From: a virus
Lineage: Duplodnaviria > Heunggongvirae > Uroviricota > Caudoviricetes
Reading direction: 5' to 3' (one strand)
Virus record (IMG/VR): IMGVR_UViG_3300005573_001627
DNA: 64,000 bases
Shown here: in pieces, positions 1,102 through 18,950 of the stretch
Numbering within the stretch: position 1 is the first letter of the stretch
Layout: each line of letters opens with the position of its first letter
Translations under genes and position numbers: made by a program
The notes under the pieces: model-generated
What the model saw: the letters and a program-made list of their open reading frames with translations, nothing else
Told to the model about the DNA's origin: nothing
Databases searched by the model: none

Positions 1102-1594
1102 AATATATGACGCTTTTGTCTATAAAGGAAATATAGAAAATTTGATGAAATGGTTATTTCAAAAGAAAGAGCAATACAAAGAACTTAAAAAAGAAGAAAT
1201 TGCTCGTCTATTTAGAGGACAGAAGAAAATTCAAAAAGAAAATTATTTTATGATTGCTGAATTAATAGAAAAATCAGTAAAAAAGCAGATAAATGCAGTT
1301 ACAAATTATCAAGCACAGGCAGTTATTTATTTTTACAAAAAAAAGATTTATATTAAGTTTTTTAGCGTACCATCAAAACTCTTGCCAAAGGACAAAAAAT
1401 TTATTGATTTTCATTATCAAAATTCAACTGATAAACCTGATAATATCTCTAATAAAGAATGGGCATATAGAGAAAGAACTTGGGATAAAATACTCAAGCA
1501 TAACACTACCTTTGGAGAAGATGGATTAACTTTTGAATTTACTCCACCTTATTTTGGATTTGAAATAGCGAGGTATATAATAAATGGAAACTAA
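1091..1594 (+). CDS. hypothetical protein
   Basis: 167-aa ORF; overlaps neighbours by 11 nt. Confidence 0.5.
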   Translation: MSTKIYDAFVYKGNIENLMKWLFQKKEQYKELKKEEIARLFRGQKKIQKENYFMIAELIEKSVKKQINAVTNYQAQAVIYFYKKKIYIKFFSVPSKLLPKDKKFIDFHYQNSTDKPDNISNKEWAYRERTWDKILKHNTTFGEDGLTFEFTPPYFGFEIARYIINGN

Positions 1595-1922
1595 AGTAGT
1601 ACTTTGTGATGAATGTAAAAAGCAACTTGCAAAGGAAAAATGCAGGATTTGCGAGAGAGACATATGTTCAAGATGTAGAATAATCTTATCAGTTAATCTT
1701 TCTCCAAAAATAAAAAACTATGATAGTGATGAAGAAAGGAATAGTCAAGTGGCGTTAGGTAGTTGTTTTATCTGCAAAACTTGCAAAAGAAATATGAAAA
1801 TACTAACAAAGAAAGGACACCAAGATATTATCCAAAAGATTGTAGAATATGTTAAAAATGAGATTGTTATTGGAGAATTAGAAGGCGAAAAAAATGAAAC
1901 AGGAAGGAGTAGAAAATGTTAG
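1584..1922 (+). CDS. zinc-ribbon (multi-CxxC) protein
   Basis: CDEC..CRIC..CSRC..CFICKTC Cys pairs. Confidence 0.55.
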   Translation: METKVVLCDECKKQLAKEKCRICERDICSRCRIILSVNLSPKIKNYDSDEERNSQVALGSCFICKTCKRNMKILTKKGHQDIIQKIVEYVKNEIVIGELEGEKNETGRSRKC

Positions 1923-2320
1923 ACAAAACAGGAAAACAGATAGATTGGGAATTAAAGAATACTGTTCATATTTGCCACGAATGTTCTGAAAAGATGAGGA
2001 AAGACTGGCAGAAAAGAAATCGGCGCTTGAAAATCCGTGAGGGCGATTTTGTCAAGGTTGCGATTAAAGATGAAAACCAGATAATAGAAAACCTCTGGTT
2101 TGAAGTATTAACAATTAATAAAAAATGTCCGACTTGTAAATCAAAAAAGATTAAAGAAATTGAACACAAAGAGTATACGCATATCTGCGAGAAATGTGGA
2201 GATGAGTTTTGCGAGTTTGTTGGCAGATGTGATAATGTTCCTTTAGAAATAGAAAATATTAAACTTGATGGGATAACTCATTTTAAATTTAAAGATATTG
2301 GGAATTATTTACCAAAATGA
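1916..2320 (+). CDS. Cys-rich zinc-binding protein
   Basis: CHEC, CPTC, CEKCGDEFC motifs; 134 aa. Confidence 0.55.
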   Translation: MLDKTGKQIDWELKNTVHICHECSEKMRKDWQKRNRRLKIREGDFVKVAIKDENQIIENLWFEVLTINKKCPTCKSKKIKEIEHKEYTHICEKCGDEFCEFVGRCDNVPLEIENIKLDGITHFKFKDIGNYLPK

Positions 2321-2559
2321 AAGAAATATATTGCACTTTTTGTAAATCAAAAATAACTTACGAAAAATATATGGAATTAAAAAATGAGATAATTATTTCA
2401 TTTAAAACCGATTGTATTGAAAAACCTATTGCAATTTTGCCTTGTTGTGATAATTGTAGAGAAATTTTAAATTATGCAAAATGGGGGGAAACAAATGCAA
2501 AAGAAAAATTAACAGATTATCTAAAAAATATGATAAGCCTATTTGAACTAACAAAATGA
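2317..2559 (+). CDS. small zinc-ribbon protein
   Basis: CTFC..CCDNC; ATGA overlap with upstream gene. Confidence 0.5.
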   Translation: MKEIYCTFCKSKITYEKYMELKNEIIISFKTDCIEKPIAILPCCDNCREILNYAKWGETNAKEKLTDYLKNMISLFELTK

Positions 2560-2891
2560 TTAAGAAATTAAAACAAACAAAAGAACTTGAATTGATAGAA
2601 CAAAGAACTTACTTTGTCAGAAGCAAGAAACTTAATGAGGATATATCTATTCATTCTCATTTAAAATCTGCGAGAAATCATTATAACTCTTTAATTAGAG
2701 GTTTAAAGATAAGAATGAGTTTGCCTGAAAAGATTAAAATAGATAAAAAATTACAGAACAAAGAAGGATGTGGCAAGAGTTTATTACCAAAACCATCGTA
2801 TTCTCTTTGTGGAGATGCGACATATCAAGGAACAAAGATTAGGGCTTTTTGTGATAACTGCCGAAGAAAGTTTTTGGGAGTGAAAAAATGA
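2556..2891 (+). CDS. hypothetical protein with C-terminal CxxC..CDNC
   Basis: 111-aa ORF, ATGA coupling. Confidence 0.45.
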   Translation: MIKKLKQTKELELIEQRTYFVRSKKLNEDISIHSHLKSARNHYNSLIRGLKIRMSLPEKIKIDKKLQNKEGCGKSLLPKPSYSLCGDATYQGTKIRAFCDNCRRKFLGVKK

Positions 2892-3106
2892 ATTTGAAAA
2901 AAATTTATAGATTAGTAATGTTGTGGGCTATGATATGTTTACCACTTTGGTTTATCTTTATACTTATCGGTGGCAGGATATTCAAAGAAAGCGATAAGGT
3001 AATTATGTTTTCCTCTTTACCTTATATTATAATAGGGATATTGATTATTATATTCAGAAATAAATTGGAAGATGGAGAAGAAAATGCGAAACCTAAAGAA
3101 ATGTGA
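2888..3106 (+). CDS. small membrane protein (2 TM)
   Basis: hydrophobic 72-aa ORF. Confidence 0.45.
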   Translation: MNLKKIYRLVMLWAMICLPLWFIFILIGGRIFKESDKVIMFSSLPYIIIGILIIIFRNKLEDGEENAKPKEM

Positions 3107-3329
3107 ACAAAAGAAATGTGGTTTTTTGATAATGGGAATGGGTTGCAGGGCTTGTGAGTGTTGCAAAGCCGAGCCATATATGGTTGATGATAATTGCGAC
3201 GCTTGTTGGAATTGCTCACACGATGAAGGGATTTTGCGATGGGATGACAACAATATTGATGAAGAAATGACTATTCAAGAGAAAGAGAAAGAAGAAGAAG
3301 AAAAAATAGAAGTGATAGCGAGGCATTAA
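3072..3329 (+). CDS. Cys-rich protein with acidic tail
   Basis: 11 Cys in 85 aa (CRACECC, CDACWNC). Confidence 0.45.
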   Translation: MEKKMRNLKKCEQKKCGFLIMGMGCRACECCKAEPYMVDDNCDACWNCSHDEGILRWDDNNIDEEMTIQEKEKEEEEKIEVIARH

Positions 3330-3455
3330 TGAGAATTAATCAAGGAGTTGTTGGGATAATAAGTTCGGTTTTAGGAATAATCTTATTTCATTATTTAGGA
3401 ATGGATAATTATAATGCTTTGTTTTTTATGCTCTTTGGCTTTAGTTTAGTCAGAT

Positions 3456-3638
3456 TTGATAAATATTGGGGAGAAAAAAATGATGACTAAAGTTGCGATT
3501 AGAGATTGTCAAGATTGCACAGAACGAATTATGATTTTATGTAGTGAAAATTCTCAAATAATTGCAGTTAGATGTCCTAAATGCTATAAAAAATTTAAAT
3601 TAAAAAATAAGAAATTTATGAAAAATGGTCCATTATAG
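3456..3638 (+). CDS. zinc-ribbon protein
   Basis: CQDC..CPKC. Confidence 0.45.
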   Translation: MINIGEKKMMTKVAIRDCQDCTERIMILCSENSQIIAVRCPKCYKKFKLKNKKFMKNGPL

Positions 3639-5286
3639 ATTACCTTTCAAAGAAAATTGGAACAAGGAAATGAGAAAAATTCTTGTAGAGGAATTGAGCA
3701 AGAAGTTAGGCATAGAAATTGGTATAAGAACGAATGATGGAGTTTCTCCATATATTGAATTTGATGAGGATAGTGTTAGAATTAGAAGATTAACTCATTT
3801 ATCTGAAAAAGAACAAAATAAAATAATGAAAAATGCAGAAGTTATTTATAAATCATTTGAAGATGGAGAAGAAAATGTCAAAAAAACTTTAAAAGAATTA
3901 ACAAAAACAGGAATGATAGAAGGAGAAAAAGAGAATAATATTCGCCTTACTGAAAAAGGAAATAAAGTTGCAGAAGAATTTTTAGGAAATCTTAATCCTA
4001 TTGAAAAAAAAATAGTTGATGAACAAATGCGTTTAGCAGGAAAGAAAGTTTGGACTTGCCCTCGTTGCAAAAAAGAAACCGAGGATATTCCAGCGATTTC
4101 AAGAAAAGATAATAAAACAGAAATCTGTACTGATTGTGGAACAGAAGAAGGATTAATTCCTGAATATCTGAATAAAGGATATTCTCTTGAAGACGCTGAG
4201 AAAGAAGCGAGGAAAGTTGTTGAAAGGATAAGAAGCCAAGAGAAAAGGTTAGATGAATTAGAAAATAAAACTTATCATACTAACTTATCAAATGAAGAAA
4301 TCAAAAAGATTTTGCAAAGACATCCTAACTTAAAAGCGACTTGGACGGATGAAGCAGATTATACTAATCCACTTATCCCCTTAAATATTCCTGAAAATGA
4401 CAGACTGATTAATTATCAAGTCCTGAAAGGATTTGCAGAAAGAGTGTATCTTACAATAGACAGGAATAAATTGATTGAAAACCCTTATGAAAACAAAGAA
4501 ATATATTTGATGGATTATTGGCTTTCTCCTGTTTTAGAGAATGGAATGGTTTTCCAAGTTGAAGATGAAGATATTGGAATGGCATTATTAAATGATTATT
4601 TTGAAGGAGAAAGTTCTTTTCAAACTATGATTATTGATTGTAAATTCCCAATAGGAGAAAAGACATTTTATTGTTTAGGAGTTGGTTCATATTATACTGA
4701 AAATAAAATACATTATAGGGCAGTAACCACTTGTTATGAGAAAGATGGGAAAATGTATTTAGCGATGTTTGCTTTAGACAAAACAGAACTTATGGAAGAT
4801 AATGGTTTTAATCTAACTCCAAAAGAAGTAAAACAATTAAGAAGTGTTGTTTTTGGTTGTTTTAATTTATTTAATGAGCAAGATGTGAAAATGATTGATA
4901 GACCTGAAAATCCCAAGAATAATATCAGGCGGAGAGAAAAGGGAAGAATTACTTTACCATCTTTTAAAATTGTGAGGATTACAGGAGAATTAAAACAATA
5001 CTCTCAAAGAATTGCAACAGGGATTAAAAGACGAGGCTATAATTATAAATTTTGGGTAAGAGGAACTTATATGCACTTCTTTGATAAGAAAAAGCATAAA
5101 AGACTTTATGCTATGAAAGAAGATGAAACAGAATTATTTAAAGAAAGGACAACCAAAAATAAAGATGGAAGTATTCAAAAATGGAGATATAAGAAAGATA
5201 AGAATGGAATTATTATCAGATGGCGTAGGGCTTTTGAAAAAGGAGAAGGATTGCATATTAAACAGATGTATAAATATGGAAAATGA
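3625..5286 (+). CDS. large hypothetical protein with central zinc ribbon
   Basis: 553 aa; CPRC..CTDCG; no recognisable catalytic motifs. Confidence 0.55.
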   Translation: MVHYRLPFKENWNKEMRKILVEELSKKLGIEIGIRTNDGVSPYIEFDEDSVRIRRLTHLSEKEQNKIMKNAEVIYKSFEDGEENVKKTLKELTKTGMIEGEKENNIRLTEKGNKVAEEFLGNLNPIEKKIVDEQMRLAGKKVWTCPRCKKETEDIPAISRKDNKTEICTDCGTEEGLIPEYLNKGYSLEDAEKEARKVVERIRSQEKRLDELENKTYHTNLSNEEIKKILQRHPNLKATWTDEADYTNPLIPLNIPENDRLINYQVLKGFAERVYLTIDRNKLIENPYENKEIYLMDYWLSPVLENGMVFQVEDEDIGMALLNDYFEGESSFQTMIIDCKFPIGEKTFYCLGVGSYYTENKIHYRAVTTCYEKDGKMYLAMFALDKTELMEDNGFNLTPKEVKQLRSVVFGCFNLFNEQDVKMIDRPENPKNNIRRREKGRITLPSFKIVRITGELKQYSQRIATGIKRRGYNYKFWVRGTYMHFFDKKKHKRLYAMKEDETELFKERTTKNKDGSIQKWRYKKDKNGIIIRWRRAFEKGEGLHIKQMYKYGK

Positions 5287-6128: not shown

Positions 6129-6412
6129 TGATACCTAAAAATAAAAAACTACAAGAATTGTATAATCAAAAGATTAATTTGATTAAGGAATTAGCCAAAA
6201 TAACTAATAACATAGAAAAATGTTTAGAAAAATGTAAACATAAAATAATCAAACAAGGAGATTTTGACGGAGCAATCGCAGTTTGCGAAGAATGTGGGAA
6301 ACATTTTGGTTGGTGGTGTGAAGAAAGCAAAGAGCATTTATGCAAATATGATGAAGAAGATATAGCCCACGATAATTGCATTTATTGTCATAAACCAGAG
6401 GAAAGAAAATGA
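6128..6412 (+). CDS. Cys/His-rich zinc-binding protein
   Basis: CLEKCKHK, CEECG, CIYCH. Confidence 0.45.
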   Translation: MIPKNKKLQELYNQKINLIKELAKITNNIEKCLEKCKHKIIKQGDFDGAIAVCEECGKHFGWWCEESKEHLCKYDEEDIAHDNCIYCHKPEERK

Positions 6413-7440
6413 ATATAAATTTGTTTAATGAAGCAACAAGAATAATGAACCCTCATCCTATATATTTGGTTGGTGGTGCAGTTAGAGATTGCCTTTTGGG
6501 AAAAGAACCAAAAGATTATGATTTTTGCACTTCTGCAACTCCTGATATTATTGAAGAAAGAATACATCGTGATGGAAAACGTGCTTATTTGACTGGGAAA
6601 AGATTTGGTACGATTGGTTGTAAAATAGATGGGCAGATGATTGAGATTACTACATTTCGTTCAGAAGAATATGAAAAAGCAAACAGAAAACCAAAAGTGG
6701 CTTATGTAAAAAACCTACAGCAAGATTTGAGCAGAAGAGATTTCACTATTAATGCTATGGCGATGAGATTAATTAAAGGAAAGATAAAACTTGTGGATAT
6801 TTATGGTGGGAAAAAGGATTTAGAGTTAAAGATAATCCGTTGCGTTGGAAATCCTAAACAAAGATTTAAAGAGGACGCTTTGAGAATATTAAGAGCAATA
6901 CGCTTCGCTTCACAATTAGGATTTAAGATAGAAGATAAATCTTTTATAAAAATGAAGGAGATGGCTATATCCATTCTTAATATTTCAAAGGAAAGATGGA
7001 TTATGGAATTAGATAAGATATTCTTATCTGAGAATATAGGTATAGGGATTGATTATCTTTTTTCATCTAATTTGATTAAATATATTATCCCTGAAATGTC
7101 GCTTCAGGAAGGATATAACCAAAAAAGCAAGTATCATAATTTTACTTTACTTGAACATACAAAAAAAGTAGTAATTGCTACTCCACAAGAAATCAATCTC
7201 CGATGGGGTGCATTTTTGCACGATATTGCTAAACCCTTTGTTATGTCAGAAAATAAGAAAGGTTACAATAATTATATAGGACACGAGATACTTGGTGCAG
7301 AGATGGTTTTAAAATTAGCAGATTATCTCAAATGGAGTAATGAACGCAAAGACAAAGTCGTGGCTCTTGTACGAGAACATCTCAAAGATAATTCAGAATT
7401 AAGAAAGTATGATAATTTAGGGAAGAAAAATGAAAACTAA
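6409..7440 (+). CDS. cca: class II (bacterial-type) CCA-adding tRNA nucleotidyltransferase / poly(A) polymerase family with C-terminal HD domain
   Basis: GGAVRDCLLGKEPKDYD head motif, RRDFTINAMA motif, downstream HDIAKP..H HD signature. Confidence 0.85.
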   Translation: MNINLFNEATRIMNPHPIYLVGGAVRDCLLGKEPKDYDFCTSATPDIIEERIHRDGKRAYLTGKRFGTIGCKIDGQMIEITTFRSEEYEKANRKPKVAYVKNLQQDLSRRDFTINAMAMRLIKGKIKLVDIYGGKKDLELKIIRCVGNPKQRFKEDALRILRAIRFASQLGFKIEDKSFIKMKEMAISILNISKERWIMELDKIFLSENIGIGIDYLFSSNLIKYIIPEMSLQEGYNQKSKYHNFTLLEHTKKVVIATPQEINLRWGAFLHDIAKPFVMSENKKGYNNYIGHEILGAEMVLKLADYLKWSNERKDKVVALVREHLKDNSELRKYDNLGKKNEN

Positions 7441-7968: not shown

Positions 7969-8448
7969 ATGAAAAATGAATTAAAAAATCCAAGATTTTG
8001 CAAGATTTGTAACAAAGATGTAAATATTTACCAATTTAAAATTGGCAGTAAGAACTGCAAAGAGATGTTGGTAAGTGATGAGGGCATTTTCTTTGGTGGT
8101 TTCTGGTTCTGTAATGATTGTTGGGATTGGATATTGAATACTCCAAAAAATATCAAATGGGATATAATCAAAGAACAAGTCGCTATTGAAGAACCAAAGA
8201 AAATTGTGATAGACTTATTGAGAGGATTAACAGAAGAACAGAAAGATTTAATCAAATATCTGACTGCGAGATTTAGGAATAATAAAGGTTTTACCCCATT
8301 AGGATTTTCTCTTGATATCAAGACAGGCGATTTATATTATTTTGATAAACTAATTTCATTCACAGTTCCGATGGAAAAGAAAATTGAAAAAGAAATAATC
8401 CAATTAAATAAATCAGGAGGAAAATACGATGCAAAAGATACTCTGTAA
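7969..8448 (+). CDS. hypothetical protein with N-terminal CxxC
   Basis: 159-aa ORF; CKICNKD..CNDCWDW. Confidence 0.45.
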   Translation: MKNELKNPRFCKICNKDVNIYQFKIGSKNCKEMLVSDEGIFFGGFWFCNDCWDWILNTPKNIKWDIIKEQVAIEEPKKIVIDLLRGLTEEQKDLIKYLTARFRNNKGFTPLGFSLDIKTGDLYYFDKLISFTVPMEKKIEKEIIQLNKSGGKYDAKDTL

Positions 8449-9010
8449 AATAACAGGAACAAGTCCATTATTGATGAACAGATACAACATAGAAAAACAA
8501 CTTGATAGCAAGAAATTGAAGAGAGTTATTGTTCAGCATATCCCAGAAGAAGAAGCAGAAGAAGCGGCTTATTGGAGTAGCACAGGTAAACGAGAGTTGG
8601 TAATACCAACTGGCGTTATTTACGCGGCGTTACTGAATGCGAGTTCATTCCATAAGATTAACAAGCGTTCTGCAAGAACAATTTTGGCTGGGGCAATGCG
8701 AGTGGTTGCTTTAGACGGCTCTGAAGAAATCAGATTAGGCACTGACAAGTATGTTATAGATACTCGTGGTGTTGTAATCAATAAAGCAAGGGTCCCTAAG
8801 TCCAGAGCAAAGTTGGAGAAATGGCAGGCAGAATTTTATATCGTTTTCAACGATAATTTAATTCCTAATGCAGAACACATCCGACCAGTTTTGGAAGAAG
8901 CAGGACAAAGAGTTGGAATAATGGATTTCAGACCAAACAGAAGTGGTTGGTTCGGCACGTTCGAAGTAGATAAGTTCCAATTAGTAGAAGACAAGAAGAA
9001 AGCCAAATAA
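8429..9010 (+). CDS. hypothetical protein (locally GC-enriched)
   Basis: 193-aa ORF, atypical codon usage; followed by strong hairpin. Confidence 0.5.
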   Translation: MQKILCKITGTSPLLMNRYNIEKQLDSKKLKRVIVQHIPEEEAEEAAYWSSTGKRELVIPTGVIYAALLNASSFHKINKRSARTILAGAMRVVALDGSEEIRLGTDKYVIDTRGVVINKARVPKSRAKLEKWQAEFYIVFNDNLIPNAEHIRPVLEEAGQRVGIMDFRPNRSGWFGTFEVDKFQLVEDKKKAK

Positions 9011-9027: not shown

Positions 9028-9051
9028 TAAGTAACCAGAAATGGTTACTTA
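9028..9051 (+). terminator. perfect 10-bp stem / GAAA tetraloop hairpin
   Basis: TAAGTAACCA-gaaa-TGGTTACTTA 18 nt after stop of 8429..9010. Confidence 0.5.
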
Positions 9052-9052
9052 T

Positions 9053-9168
9053 GGGAGAGTAGAGGAGTGGTTTCCCTCGTGATTAAGTATAAGTTCGCCC
9101 ACTGCCGTTATAACAGAAGGTAAACTATACTTAATCAAGTAGGTGTGGTTCAAATCCCACCTCTCCTA
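9053..9168 (+). tRNA. tRNA-like gene, probably with ~41-nt insert (intron) in anticodon arm; anticodon not assignable
   Basis: 7-bp acceptor GGGAGAG/CTCTCCT (G1-U72), U8-A9, D-stem GAGG/CCTC with GG loop, 8-bp extended anticodon helix TGATTAAG/CTTAATCA, T-loop GGTTCAAATCC; T-stem imperfect. Confidence 0.4.
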
Positions 9169-9179
9169 TTTTTTTGGTG

Positions 9180-9407
9180 GAGTGTAGTGCAAAGTGGTAG
9201 CGTCCTGTATTGTTGACTATTGTGCAGTTCTGCAAAGTTAGGTAAGGAATTATAATCAATTCAATCATATTTCGGTATAGTCCAGCGTGGCTCGGTAGTC
9301 CACTGTCCTGTACTGTGAAGCAAGGTAAGGAAATTATATTCATATTCAAGTGAGGGTAGGTGTGGTGTTGTCAAGTAAAATACTGCACGGTGGGGTTTGT
9401 TAAGGCA
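9180..9407 (+). repeat. three tandem G+T-rich leader units (AATCATATTC-box family)
   Basis: boxes aatcatatttcgg (9268) and attcatattcaag (9340); words GTCCTGT, GGTAAGG, GTGGTGTTGTC. Confidence 0.6.
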
Positions 9408-9881
9408 ATGAAAAAAAATAAAATGCAAGAAAGATATATGAAGTTAGGAATTTGCAAGAGATGTAAAAGATTACGTCCAATTTATCAAGTAGCGAAGCAA
9501 CTTTGTGCAAGTTGTAGGCAACTTGAGAGATTACACGAAAGTCCTAAAAGATATCAAGAATTTTTAGCAAAACAGAGAAAAAGAAACAAAAAGAATCGCA
9601 AAGCCAAGAGAGAATACAACTATAATTATTATAGAACAGGAGATAATGCAGAAAGAATGAAAGAATATGCCCATAAATATTATCAAGAGAATAAAGAAAA
9701 ATGCGATGAAGCAAGTAAAAAATGGAAAAAAGAACATCCTGAAAAAGTTAAAGCAAGTCAAAAAAAATATTATAATACTCATCAAGAAGCGAGAACAATT
9801 TCTCATAGAAAATGGGGTGAGAAAAAGAAAATGTTAAATAAATCAACCAAAAATTCTGAAAGGAGGATTAGTGAAGAATGA
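9408..9881 (+). CDS. basic zinc-ribbon protein (CKRCKR..CASC), KR-rich tail
   Basis: start moved to MKKNKMQ after leader repeat; ORF track began inside repeat. Confidence 0.5.
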   Translation: MKKNKMQERYMKLGICKRCKRLRPIYQVAKQLCASCRQLERLHESPKRYQEFLAKQRKRNKKNRKAKREYNYNYYRTGDNAERMKEYAHKYYQENKEKCDEASKKWKKEHPEKVKASQKKYYNTHQEARTISHRKWGEKKKMLNKSTKNSERRISEE

Positions 9882-10636
9882 AAAAGATACAACCACCCAC
9901 AAATAAATTGGTTAAGATAAAAGATATCGGTATAGATGAAAAACTTTATCCAAGAGCCCACGTTAATTACCAAACTCGTTCAAGATACTATAATGCAATA
10001 CAATCAGGCGCAATTTTACCACCTATCTGTGTTGCAAAAATAGAGAATGGAACGAAAAAATTTAGTTTGATTGATGGAAGACACAGAATTGAAGCGATGA
10101 CAGGATTGGGAGAAGAATATATCCAAGCCGAAGTCTATGAAGGATTGACCAAGAAAGAAATCTTTATCAAAGCAGTAGAACTGAATACAATTCACGGAAA
10201 ACCATTTGACGCTTTTGAAGTCGTTGGGATAACCCAAAAGTTAAAGGATGATTTTAAGATGACCTTAGAAGAAATTTCTGCAATTGTCAGAATTCCTGTT
10301 GATAAAATCGAGCCTTTTGTTGCAAAGAGAATAACTCGGATAATAGAAACTGGTGACCCAGTTGTCTTGAAAAAACCGTTATATGACTATGCAGGTATAG
10401 ATATATCAATTAATGATAATCTACCTCAGGAACAAAAGAAACTTGATGGGATTGCACAAATAAAGATGATTGAAGGAGTTATAACTTTAGTTCGTGGCGG
10501 ATACATTTCCAAAGTTGATGAAACTGTTGAACATCGTTTGAAGAAACTGTATAAACTGCTTAAAGCAAGATTTGAGGGCGAAAGTAACATTAATAAACTC
10601 CCTAAACCTAAAAAGGATAGGCAGAAGAAAAAATAA
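9878..10636 (+). CDS. ParB/Srx-like N-terminal domain protein
   Basis: LIDGRHRIEA (DGxHR) motif; 252 aa. Confidence 0.6.
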   Translation: MKKIQPPTNKLVKIKDIGIDEKLYPRAHVNYQTRSRYYNAIQSGAILPPICVAKIENGTKKFSLIDGRHRIEAMTGLGEEYIQAEVYEGLTKKEIFIKAVELNTIHGKPFDAFEVVGITQKLKDDFKMTLEEISAIVRIPVDKIEPFVAKRITRIIETGDPVVLKKPLYDYAGIDISINDNLPQEQKKLDGIAQIKMIEGVITLVRGGYISKVDETVEHRLKKLYKLLKARFEGESNINKLPKPKKDRQKKK

Positions 10637-10756
10637 CTAATCATACTTCTTGATGAGGGAAGTTGTGGTGTTGTCCTGTGGTGTCCTGTCACGTAATGTG
10701 GAGTTCGGTAGCGTACTGTATTGTTCTGTCCTGTATCGTATGGCAAGGAGTTTATT
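10637..10756 (+). repeat. G+T-rich leader unit
   Basis: GTGGTGTTGTCCTGT..GTATGGCAAGGAG then ATG. Confidence 0.55.
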
Positions 10757-10951
10757 ATGAAAAAGGATAAAACATCAAAGATTGATGAAGCAAGAGAAAT
10801 AATCAGCGAATTAAAGGTTAAAGATTTTAAAGAAGAAAATCTTATTATTGCTTTAACCAAATTAAAGACATTATTGGATGAAACCTTTGAACTAATTAAA
10901 TTCAGGAAGAGTAGAGATTTACCTTATGTGATGAAAGATGGCAATATTTAA
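10757..10951 (+). CDS. small hypothetical protein
   Basis: start at MKKDKT after leader. Confidence 0.45.
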   Translation: MKKDKTSKIDEAREIISELKVKDFKEENLIIALTKLKTLLDETFELIKFRKSRDLPYVMKDGNI

Positions 10952-16308: not shown

Positions 16309-17100
16309 TTGGTTATGGATTTAGATAGATGTCGTGTTATAGCAGTGCTTGGAGATATTGATACTTGTAAAACAAATCTCGCAATCTACTTGTTAAGGCA
16401 ATATCGTGGAGACCGACAAATTTATTTATTGGGGTATCCTAAACAAATAGATAATTTTAAAACACTTACAAATTTTAATGATTTATTTAAGATTTCTGAC
16501 GGAATTGTGTTTATTGATGAAATTCAAAGATTTATCAAGAGTTATGAACATCATAAAAATACAGCGTTACAAGAATTAATGAGTTTCTTTGCACATAATA
16601 ATTTAACTTTGATTATGACTACTCAACTTTCACAATTTATAACAAAAGGAACTGAAGCATTTGTTGATACTTGGTGTTTCACAAGAATAAGTGATATTCA
16701 AAGTCTAAAAAACGGAAGCAAACCTAAACGAATAATCCAATCAACAGTCCATCCACGCTGCACTTCTTGGGCTTTGGCCTTACCACTTGGAGAATATTTA
16801 GAACATAATGATAATAATTTACTTGGTGATAATGGAGTCAAAAGTTTTCCAAATCAAGGAATTCAGAAAGATTGGCGAAATAAAATTAGTTTTGAAGATG
16901 ACCAAACTCAAAATTCCCAACAAAATTCCCAAAAAAATAGCGCGGGAAATTCCCAAATTTCTTCCCAAAAATCCCCACAAAATTCCCCAAATCAAACTGA
17001 TTTAACTATCCAAACTTCTGAAGTTGAGAATCATGAGAGCTCTAATGACCATTTTACGCTTAAAAATAAACAAAATTTGAGGAAAAATGGAAGAAACTAA
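16309..17100 (+). CDS. P-loop NTPase (deviant Walker A) with Q/N/S-rich repeat tail
   Basis: VLGDIDTCKTN Walker A-like, IVFIDEIQRF Walker B; C-term NSQQNSQKNS.. repeats. Confidence 0.5.
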   Translation: MVMDLDRCRVIAVLGDIDTCKTNLAIYLLRQYRGDRQIYLLGYPKQIDNFKTLTNFNDLFKISDGIVFIDEIQRFIKSYEHHKNTALQELMSFFAHNNLTLIMTTQLSQFITKGTEAFVDTWCFTRISDIQSLKNGSKPKRIIQSTVHPRCTSWALALPLGEYLEHNDNNLLGDNGVKSFPNQGIQKDWRNKISFEDDQTQNSQQNSQKNSAGNSQISSQKSPQNSPNQTDLTIQTSEVENHESSNDHFTLKNKQNLRKNGRN

Positions 17101-17245
17101 AGAAAATTCATTAAAAAAATCGGGGAGTCGTAGTAAAAGGTTCGATTCCCTTGATTAATGACTATTTTATGCATAATTTTCTATTAAAAATATAAAAAAA
17201 TGGCTATAAAATCACATTCAAATTAAATTTGGAGGAAATACGAAA

Positions 17246-17332: not shown

Positions 17333-17508
17333 AATCATATTCAAGTTAAGTTAAGTATTGTATTGCAAACTCTTGTATTGTAACGCATTGTCCTGTAAGG
17401 TTTTGTTTAGTTTGGAATTTAATTATAATCATATTCGAGGCTGAGTCAGGTGGGGTGGCGTCCTGTCCTGTATTGTATGGTACTGCTTTGTATGGAGTTT
17501 TAAATAAA
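17333..17508 (+). repeat. two tandem G+T-rich leader units
   Basis: aatcatattcaagtt.. and aatcatattcgaggc.. boxes; ends GTATGGAGTTTTAAATAAA then ATG. Confidence 0.6.
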
Positions 17509-18754: not shown

Positions 18755-18950
18755 ATTGGCCATAACAATTATTGGAGAAATAATGTTCTTTATAGTTTTA
18801 CTTTTACTCTTTACTTGGTTATGGCATTTTATTGGGATTACTGCTGAAGATTTCTATACAGGAAGATTTTGGTGGATTTTATTTTGTGTAGTTGGTTTGA
18901 TGTTATGGGAATTATTTAAAGATAAATTCAATAATAGGTGGTGGAATTAA
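18735..18950 (+). CDS. small membrane protein
   Basis: 71-aa hydrophobic ORF. Confidence 0.4.
   Translation: MTKRKYKLAITIIGEIMFFIVLLLLFTWLWHFIGITAEDFYTGRFWWILFCVVGLMLWELFKDKFNNRWWN

Follow-up and report, generated by a model that had tools for sequence, protein, structure and literature searches.

The Vipr protein family and the VIPR systems of phages have been described in two preprints (bioRxiv 10.64898/2026.04.26.720920 and 10.64898/2026.04.26.720927). Phage-encoded Vipr polymerizes on vrRNAs of 9 to 16 GGY/NN pentanucleotide repeats, the arrays encoding these RNAs flank the vipr gene, and the system silences competing mobile elements (10.64898/2026.04.26.720920, 10.64898/2026.04.26.720927). 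In VIPR types I and V, hammerhead ribozymes are interspersed between the vrRNAs (10.64898/2026.04.26.720920). In this study, we analyzed a stretch of viral DNA of 64,000 nucleotides (IMG/VR record IMGVR_UViG_3300005573_001627), referred to as the window, which represents a phage-like genome of 32% G+C with nearly all genes on the plus strand. Its VIPR system comprises one vipr gene and three vrRNA arrays. A tRNA(CAU)-derived, tRNA-like gene of 116 nt without an encoded CCA (9053 to 9168, plus strand) lies downstream of the vipr stop codon (position 9010) and ahead of the first vrRNA tract (position 9176). Sequence comparison firmly establishes this element as orthologous to phage genes for tRNA(CAU), of the Met or Ile2 type, with a hairpin extension substituted for its anticodon loop.

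The ancestry of the element was traced through its relatives. Contigs were fetched for the closest of 73 metagenomic homologs of the vipr gene. Two of them, L012 and L018, whose vipr proteins are 85% and 72% identical to that of the window, carry an uninterrupted tRNA directly 3' of the vipr homolog, at the same position. Both were typed by ARAGORN as tRNA-Met(CAT). The tRNA of L012 (826 to 900) has the anticodon loop CUCAUAA and scores 45.5 bits against the Rfam tRNA model, and that of L018 (1542 to 1615) has the loop CUCAUGA and scores 51.3 bits. L013 supplied the third sequence (1519 to 1593, minus strand), a tRNA(CAU) that is more distantly related and shares their D and T arms. When the three were aligned, the cloverleaf was 98% paired, with compensatory changes in 8 of the 21 pairs.

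A covariance model, R1, was built solely from these three canonical relatives. Its sole match in the 64-kb window was 9053 to 9168, with a score of 77.8 bits (E value of 2e-19) over model positions 1 to 75. The alignment places 48 nt in the window copy where the model carries 7, all 21 model pairs are paired, and no nonstandard pair was flagged. Against the same model, no ordinary tRNA within 424 kb of related loci exceeded 41 bits. A sequence-only reading of this DNA had proposed a tRNA-derived element with an excess of 41 nt in its anticodon arm, and the R1 match bears this out. Since a model derived from canonical relatives matches once in 64 kb, and does so at full length, the match is well beyond chance.

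ARAGORN, which had been named as a means of checking the proposal, found no tRNAs in the window at default settings, whereas in intron mode at 95% of the threshold it made one call in 64 kb, the 9053 to 9168 element. This relaxed solution assumes a 39-nt intron and leaves the loop CUAUACU, with anticodon AUA and C37; this combination is not known from working tRNAs. The Rfam tRNA model RF00005 did not match the element even at E values up to 10, and neither did any Rfam ribozyme, intron, Y RNA, tmRNA, or other family at the gathering score or at E values up to 10. It should be noted that the L012 and L018 tRNAs (45 to 51 bits, with a cutoff of 29) were missed by an Rfam gathering run on 25 kb and found by an E-value run on 3 kb. 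For this reason, a negative Rfam gathering scan is no proof of absence for atypical tRNAs. As the defaults of ARAGORN and Rfam miss such elements, tRNA-derived RNAs of this sort are probably undercounted in viral metagenomes.

From 5' to 3', the element reads GGGAGAG-TA-GAGG-AGTGGTTTC-CCTC-G-TGATT-(48 nt)-AATCA-AGTAG-GTGTGG-TTCAAAT-CCCAC-CTCTCCT-A. With the exception of the anticodon loop, the tRNA body is complete and comprises acceptor stem, D arm, anticodon stem, variable loop, and T arm. The acceptor stem of 7 bp (GGGAGAG/CTCTCCT, 9053 to 9059 with 9161 to 9167) includes a G1·U72 pair. It is followed by U8-A9, the D arm with the stem GAGG/CCTC (9062 to 9078), and G26 (9079). On the 3' side of the anticodon arm lie the variable loop (9138 to 9142), the T arm (9143 to 9160), and the discriminator A (9168), all on the plus strand. 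The T loop GGTTCAAATCC (9147 to 9157) agrees with the GTTCRANYC loop of tRNA cloverleafs, and the T stem requires one bulged U (U9146). The acceptor, D, anticodon, and T elements, U8-A9, and G26 were found as the sequence-only reading had listed them, and its observation that the T stem needs a bulge was also correct.

The feature that sets the element apart is its expanded anticodon arm of 58 nt (9080 to 9137, plus strand), as delimited by an inverted repeat, the minimum free energy (MFE) fold, and the covariance alignment. The 5-bp anticodon stem TGATT/AATCA (9080 to 9084 with 9133 to 9137) closes 48 nt (9085 to 9132) instead of a 7-nt loop. It is prolonged as a perfect 12-bp inverted repeat (I18), in which 9080 to 9091 are 100% complementary to 9126 to 9137. 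The arm forms a single hairpin of approximately 21 bp, made up of the 12 perfect bp, a bulged A, and 3+3+3 bp with small internal loops, and ends in a 9-nt tip loop, CCGUUAUAA. Folded in isolation, the 58-nt arm had an MFE of -19.1 kcal/mol (z score of -6.0). No CAU triplet occurs anywhere in the expanded arm. As encoded, the predicted RNA is devoid of an anticodon loop and therefore unable to decode.

Of the 58 positions that lie beyond the anticodon arm, 55 are identical between the element and each of the two orthologs from L012 and L018. By comparison, the adjacent vipr gene is only 60% and 48% identical to L012 and L018 at third codon positions, and the intergenic flanks could not be aligned. 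Because the body is far more conserved than its surroundings, we conclude that the tRNA family is under strong constraint and that the window copy shows no decay. The sole body change specific to the window, G1, preserves the 1:72 pair (G·U versus A-U and C-G in the orthologs). The anticodon stem is likewise preserved by double substitutions, reading TGAGC/GCTCA and TAGCC/GGCTA in the orthologs versus TGATT/AATCA in the window. The bulged U of the T stem (GUGuGG/CCCAC) is common to L012, L018, L013, and L014 and is therefore a family trait and not damage. A bulged-U T stem is also present in an unrelated tRNA-Arg (L014, 3084 to 3103). The intact body is compatible with continued function or, by our estimate from these substitutions, with an inactivation within about the last third of the branch at most.

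The element is 100% identical in two independent assemblies, L022 (ENA) and L023 (JGI), and is thus not an assembly artifact. All insertion-bearing copies represent one strain (99.97 to 100% identity over 2.8 to 6.6 kb) and add no evolutionary depth. Further insertion-bearing homologs were found neither by pattern scans of viral, metagenome, and genome sequences, nor in 41 IMG/VR vipr loci, nor with ARAGORN in intron mode (478 kb), nor by the covariance search (424 kb). One candidate, L015, was rejected as a chance match. Searches for a host identified none: the phage that carries the element had no DNA match among phage records and only remote protein matches, and no relative was detected among genome contigs.

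The gene upstream of the element, vipr (8429 to 9010, plus strand), encodes the Cas7-like RAMP protein of the VIPR system, as assigned by a profile search against the PDB, an AlphaFold2 model, and Foldseek. The family profile (A3) matched a single PDB sequence, 36pp_D ("SUSP1 Vipr protein"), with an E value of 5.7e-12 over profile positions 1 to 174 of 183. The AlphaFold2 model had a mean confidence score (pLDDT) of 82. All of its top 50 Foldseek matches in the PDB were chains of CRISPR effector complexes, either of type III (Csm/Cmr) or of type VII, and the predicted fold matches Csm3/Cas7 (Cas7-like RAMP).

The G/T-rich, "tandem promoter-like" repeats 3' of the element are vrRNA arrays of xGY-NN pentanucleotide units. 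Array 1 (9176 to 9410, plus strand) contains three tracts of 10 to 14 units with boundary blocks of the form GTAAGGAA..TTATAWT..CATATTC. Its lag-5 identity was 0.46 compared with 0.27 after shuffling (z score of 6.4), and G at unit position 2 and Y at position 3 were found in 19 to 24 of 20 to 28 instances. Across the arrays, lag-5 identities ranged from 0.43 to 0.52, versus 0.27 in shuffles. The corresponding z scores were 6 to 10 for the complete arrays at 9177 to 9410, 17345 to 17500, and 46540 to 47200 of the window and 4640 to 5450 of L007, and 4.4 for 905 to 1075 of L012. In total, the window holds approximately 13 vrRNA tracts of 8 to 19 units each, in which 86 to 100% of the scored unit positions show the G of position 2 and the pyrimidine of position 3; vipr is therefore flanked by arrays with at least four GGY/NN-type units. 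Tracts are parted by a conserved block, ..GGAAAT-CATATTC-RRG, and a position-specific scoring matrix (PSSM) trained on relatives ranked these blocks 1 to 8 in the window, with 9335 and 9341 first among all window positions. The vap genes are represented only by candidates, which encode a ParB-like protein (9878 to 10636) and a zinc finger protein (9411 to 9881).

Searches for vrRNA targets, in which the 13 tracts were compared with sequence collections under a 1-nt skip rule, performed no better than shuffled controls. The first tract (9176 to 9250; ..CCTGTATTGTTG..GTGCAGTTCTGCAAAGTTAGG..) recurs almost unchanged in L007 (4925 to 4990) and L021 (2365 to 2440), where it occupies other array positions. 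Its near identity in the window, L007, and L021 suggests a shared target. The 5' strand of the T stem within the T arm (9143 to 9160) also parses into a pair of GGY-NN units (GGU-GU-GGU-UC), probably by coincidence.

With vipr upstream and vrRNA arrays downstream, the tRNA-like gene marks the junction between vipr and the first vrRNA. Directly 5' of it lies a 10-bp hairpin with a GAAA loop (9028 to 9051, plus strand), which ends 1 nt before G1 and not 2 nt, as had been noted previously. The hairpin itself is real, but its interpretation as a terminator does not hold for a canonical terminator of the plus strand, as no U tail follows it; it is also absent from L012 and L018. On the other side, a run of seven T (9169 to 9175, plus strand) separates the discriminator base from the first vrRNA tract. 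The layout in L012 is alike (tRNA, ATTTT, tract), and in both the window and L012 the tract begins 4 to 7 nt past the 3' end of the tRNA with no boundary block in between. No promoter-like or boundary block was found upstream of the element, and no boundary block lies upstream of the tRNA in L012 or L018.

A tRNA is present at the vipr junction in 3 of about 10 close relatives. In three others, an HNH_3 homing-endonuclease-like gene occupies the tRNA's place between vipr and the array (L005, 3625 to 4404; L011, 1242 to 1775; L021, 1575 to 2348). From these gene orders, the junction appears to be an insertion hot spot. In L010, a 65-kb contig of a more distant vipr phage, 19 tRNA genes are located just upstream of vipr (1176 to 3927), and for two of these the distance to the vipr start is no more than 160 nt. 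A vrRNA array follows downstream of vipr, so that a tRNA cluster and a VIPR locus are again neighbors.

The reading that we favor, with a probability of roughly 40%, is that a nondecoding tRNA-like RNA is still excised by RNase P and RNase Z and in this way parts the vipr mRNA from the first vrRNA. The RNA would be transcribed by read-through from vipr, as proposed from the absence of a promoter-like block upstream of the element, and would remain unspliced and fold into an L-shape with an overlong anticodon arm. The 5' cut, made by RNase P, would fall at G9053, with U as nucleotide -1 and G as nucleotide +1; the 3' cut, made by RNase Z or a comparable activity, would fall after A9168, at a CCA-less end with a U-rich trailer. 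The excised RNA may then receive CCA from the phage's own class II CCA-adding enzyme with an HD domain (6409 to 7440, plus strand; phrog_2244, E value of 9e-70; Pfam PolyA_pol, PolyA_pol_RNAbd, and HD), whose gene is located 1.6 kb upstream of the CCA-less tRNA-like gene. The vipr mRNA would be left ending in the 9028 to 9051 hairpin, a possible stabilizer of its 3' end, and the first vrRNA would be released from 9169 to 9176 onward.

In engineered tRNA-guide RNA (gRNA) arrays and in MALAT1-mascRNA, a tRNA fold suffices for punctuation by RNase P and RNase Z. The determinants of such punctuation are present in the window: the acceptor and T-arm helix, U(-1)/G(+1), the CCA-less 3' end, U7, and the tract at 9176. 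Since punctuation needs only the acceptor/T-arm half, it would account for an intact body despite the lost anticodon loop. We regard as rather unlikely the more specific history in which the VIPR locus recruited a tRNA gene as host-RNase-dependent punctuation, after which the tRNA lost its anticodon loop and survived as a processing module or scaffold.

Several observations weigh against a punctuation role. There is no tRNA at the junction in L007, L008, and L016, and an HNH gene is found there in L005, L011, and L021; as most close relatives are without a tRNA at this position, the VIPR locus does not need one. The tRNA is not clearly a substitute for a boundary block either, because the first tracts of L007 and L010 are also without a strong block, and the idea of such a replacement was unsupported. 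The insertion is known from one strain and cannot be dated, and the intact body would also fit a recent inactivation. U7 directly after a structured RNA could cause termination before the first vrRNA, and the perfect 12-bp inverted repeat looks young, or of DNA-level origin, rather than like an old selected RNA helix. Finally, tRNAs are mentioned in neither of the VIPR preprints (10.64898/2026.04.26.720920, 10.64898/2026.04.26.720927).

Some of the same observations would be explained if palindromic DNA had recently inserted into, or replaced, the anticodon loop of the tRNA(CAU) gene and disabled it, leaving a functionless relic that awaits decay or deletion. The RNA cannot decode, no excision restores the loop, and the element is rejected by default ARAGORN as well as by the tRNA model of Rfam. 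The locus turns over fast, with tRNAs or HNH genes in only some of the close relatives, and all insertion-bearing copies are one strain. In addition, a perfect 12-bp inverted repeat without G·U pairs suggests a recent event at the DNA level. However, no damaging change is seen in the tRNA body, where the sole lineage-specific substitution keeps the pairing. The inserted sequence extends the anticodon helix seamlessly and leaves the fold undisturbed, and useless DNA is usually deleted fast from phage genomes. We therefore consider inactivation without function a real possibility, if a somewhat unlikely one.

It is improbable, in our assessment, that the extra sequence is a noncanonical intron of the kind called "enigmatic introns" in Lak phages, in which a nuclease of the host or the phage would remove the hairpin and the phage RNA ligase would rejoin the halves to give a working tRNA. 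Presence/absence polymorphism between orthologous phage tRNA genes is seen here as in Lak phages (PMC6784885), and the tRNA body is intact. The window also encodes an Rnl5/DRB0094-type RNA ligase (56576 to 57628; TIGR02306, 170 bits) and a metallophosphoesterase (47674 to 48162), besides the CCA-adding enzyme with its HD domain, and ARAGORN proposes its 39-nt intron. However, enumeration of all single deletions yielded none that gives a 5-bp stem and a 7-nt loop with U33 and R37, which confirms what the sequence-only reading had stated. Excision products with U33 have either C37, as in the CUAUACU loop of ARAGORN, or stems of 6 to 7 bp with abnormal spacing, and every single-excision product has Y37 or a 6- to 7-bp stem of nonstandard spacing. 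ARAGORN's own solution, with anticodon AUA and C37, is no exception, and the arm offers no CAU. A group I intron was rejected, since the insertion measures 41 to 48 nt compared with about 200 nt or more for a self-splicing core (P3 to P9), and no Rfam intron or ribozyme matched. No splicing endonuclease was recognized among the approximately 45 window proteins scanned.

An exhaustive scan for the bulge-helix-bulge (BHB) motif of archaeal and eukaryal introns, a test that had been called for, returned no motif with all eight scored pairs, and the 7/8 candidates misfit the tRNA fold. The MFE hairpin of the arm is also without 3-nt bulges. The suggestion of a noncanonically placed intron of archaeal type thus failed on two counts, having neither a BHB motif nor a canonical single excision.

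As an alternative use of the same structure, the tRNA body could be a stable, self-processing carrier for an active arm that serves as a protein-binding site, decoy, or antisense RNA, possibly linked to VIPR. The high stability of the arm (z score of -6.0) on an intact tRNA body would suit such a scaffold. A weak local similarity was also noted between the 3' arm plus variable loop and the end of the adjacent vrRNA unit 2, with the observed score reached by 2 of 500 and 5 of 300 shuffles. This similarity was not significant against other arrays, and the boundary-block PSSM trained on relatives scored the insertion at or below 0, so that a promoter or boundary block inside the insertion was rejected. 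A repeated or mobile element was rejected as well: none of the arm's 12-mers occurs a second time on either strand of the window, no similar hairpins were seen, and no homolog of the arm was found anywhere. On this evidence, we think it quite doubtful that the arm is a functional hairpin carried by the tRNA.

An archaeal-type tRNA intron in an archaeal virus, or a tRNA remnant of an att site, is very unlikely: VIPR systems are also present in archaeal viruses, and there are weak archaeal-flavored Pfam hints (S_layer_C in the window, HVO_A0114 in L018), but no strict BHB motif exists, the CCA-adding enzyme is of class II (Pfam PolyA_pol head and HD domains), which is the bacterial/eukaryotic and not the archaeal class, the body is full length with intact orthologs at the same phage locus, its T-arm 20-mer was not matched exactly by any of 185,579 species genomes, and no integrase was detected among the neighboring proteins scanned. 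The earlier idea of an att-site remnant was abandoned on these grounds.

A second T-loop-like 11-mer had been reported at 17143 to 17153. The 11-mer GGTTCGATTCC is present, at 17139 to 17149, but is not related to a tRNA. It lies in a 12-bp hairpin (approximately 17108 to 17162) after the gene at 16309 to 17100, where it provides the loop as well as the 3' strand, with its partner GGGGAGUCG upstream, and R1 has no match there.

Apart from the enzymes named above, the RNA repair and modification genes of the window include those for a Fic/DOC protein and a pol-beta-like nucleotidyltransferase (loci 18938 to 19438 and 27830 to 28291), a set typical of phages facing tRNA-targeting defenses. L001, a phage contig related through its CCA-adding enzyme, carries a mini-array of three CRISPR-like repeats of 37 nt (GTTTCAATCCTTATTATACTGGAATATGAATAGAAAC) with spacers of 31 to 36 nt at 8270 to 8460, as well as an odd tRNA at 10728 to 10801 that ARAGORN could not type.

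The window provides a rich example of a VIPR system in an uncultivated phage lineage. The position of the element at the junction suggests a testable role, independent of the anticodon, that a tRNA fold could have in this recently described RNA-guided system of phages. Its closest known counterparts are the phage tRNA-Met/Ile2(CAU) genes of L012 and L018, with which it shares the arms of the body, the bulged-U T stem, the missing CCA, and the position 3' of vipr. It differs from these in that 48 nt stand where they have the 7-nt loop, no CAU is present, and default callers miss it.

The "enigmatic introns" of Lak megaphages are also polymorphic insertions in phage tRNAs with neither group I nor BHB character and with an unexplained mechanism (Devoto et al. 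2019, PMC6784885). Compared by their description, they differ in that the excision predicted for Lak phages gives back a tRNA that can be typed by its anticodon (PMC6784885), whereas no excision does so here. Insertions of this kind have been reported but never explained; in the present case, intact and interrupted alleles at one locus delimit the insertion exactly.

Two further RNAs resemble the element in architecture. In bacterial 23S rRNA, intervening sequences (IVSs) likewise convert the terminal loop of a conserved helix into an extended imperfect hairpin and occur sporadically among relatives. The loops that give way to IVSs are dispensable, and RNase III cuts the IVSs out with no religation afterward, whereas the loop replaced in the window is the functional center of a tRNA. 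YrlA, a Y RNA-like tRNA mimic of bacteria and phages, combines tRNA-like acceptor, T, and D modules with a long helix in the place of the anticodon arm. The ends of YrlA lie within the long helix and its acceptor stem is closed, a permuted topology. The window element, in contrast, had no Rfam match, and no Ro/Rsr-binding motif was seen in it.

With regard to the proposed function, tRNA punctuation systems are the nearest parallel. In the tRNA-microRNA (miRNA) units of murine gammaherpesvirus 68 (MHV68), in MALAT1-mascRNA, and in tRNA-gRNA arrays, RNase P and RNase Z cut a tRNA or tRNA-like fold that adjoins another functional RNA, and the anticodon is irrelevant. In such systems, a stable structure remains at the 3' end of the upstream RNA. 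They are eukaryotic or synthetic, and the analogy with the window is one of gene order only. Among VIPR systems, the arrays interspersed with hammerhead ribozymes also place a structured RNA at the vrRNA border, where it could generate a vrRNA end (10.64898/2026.04.26.720920). In contrast to these, the single tRNA fold at the vipr/array junction of the window would rely on host RNase P and RNase Z and not on self-cleavage. If the more specific history of recruitment and anticodon loop loss is true, the tRNA fold would represent a third source of VIPR guide RNA ends, besides the arrays' own promoters and hammerhead ribozymes, and a natural counterpart of synthetic tRNA-gRNA arrays, in which a tRNA is caught turning into a nondecoding RNA.

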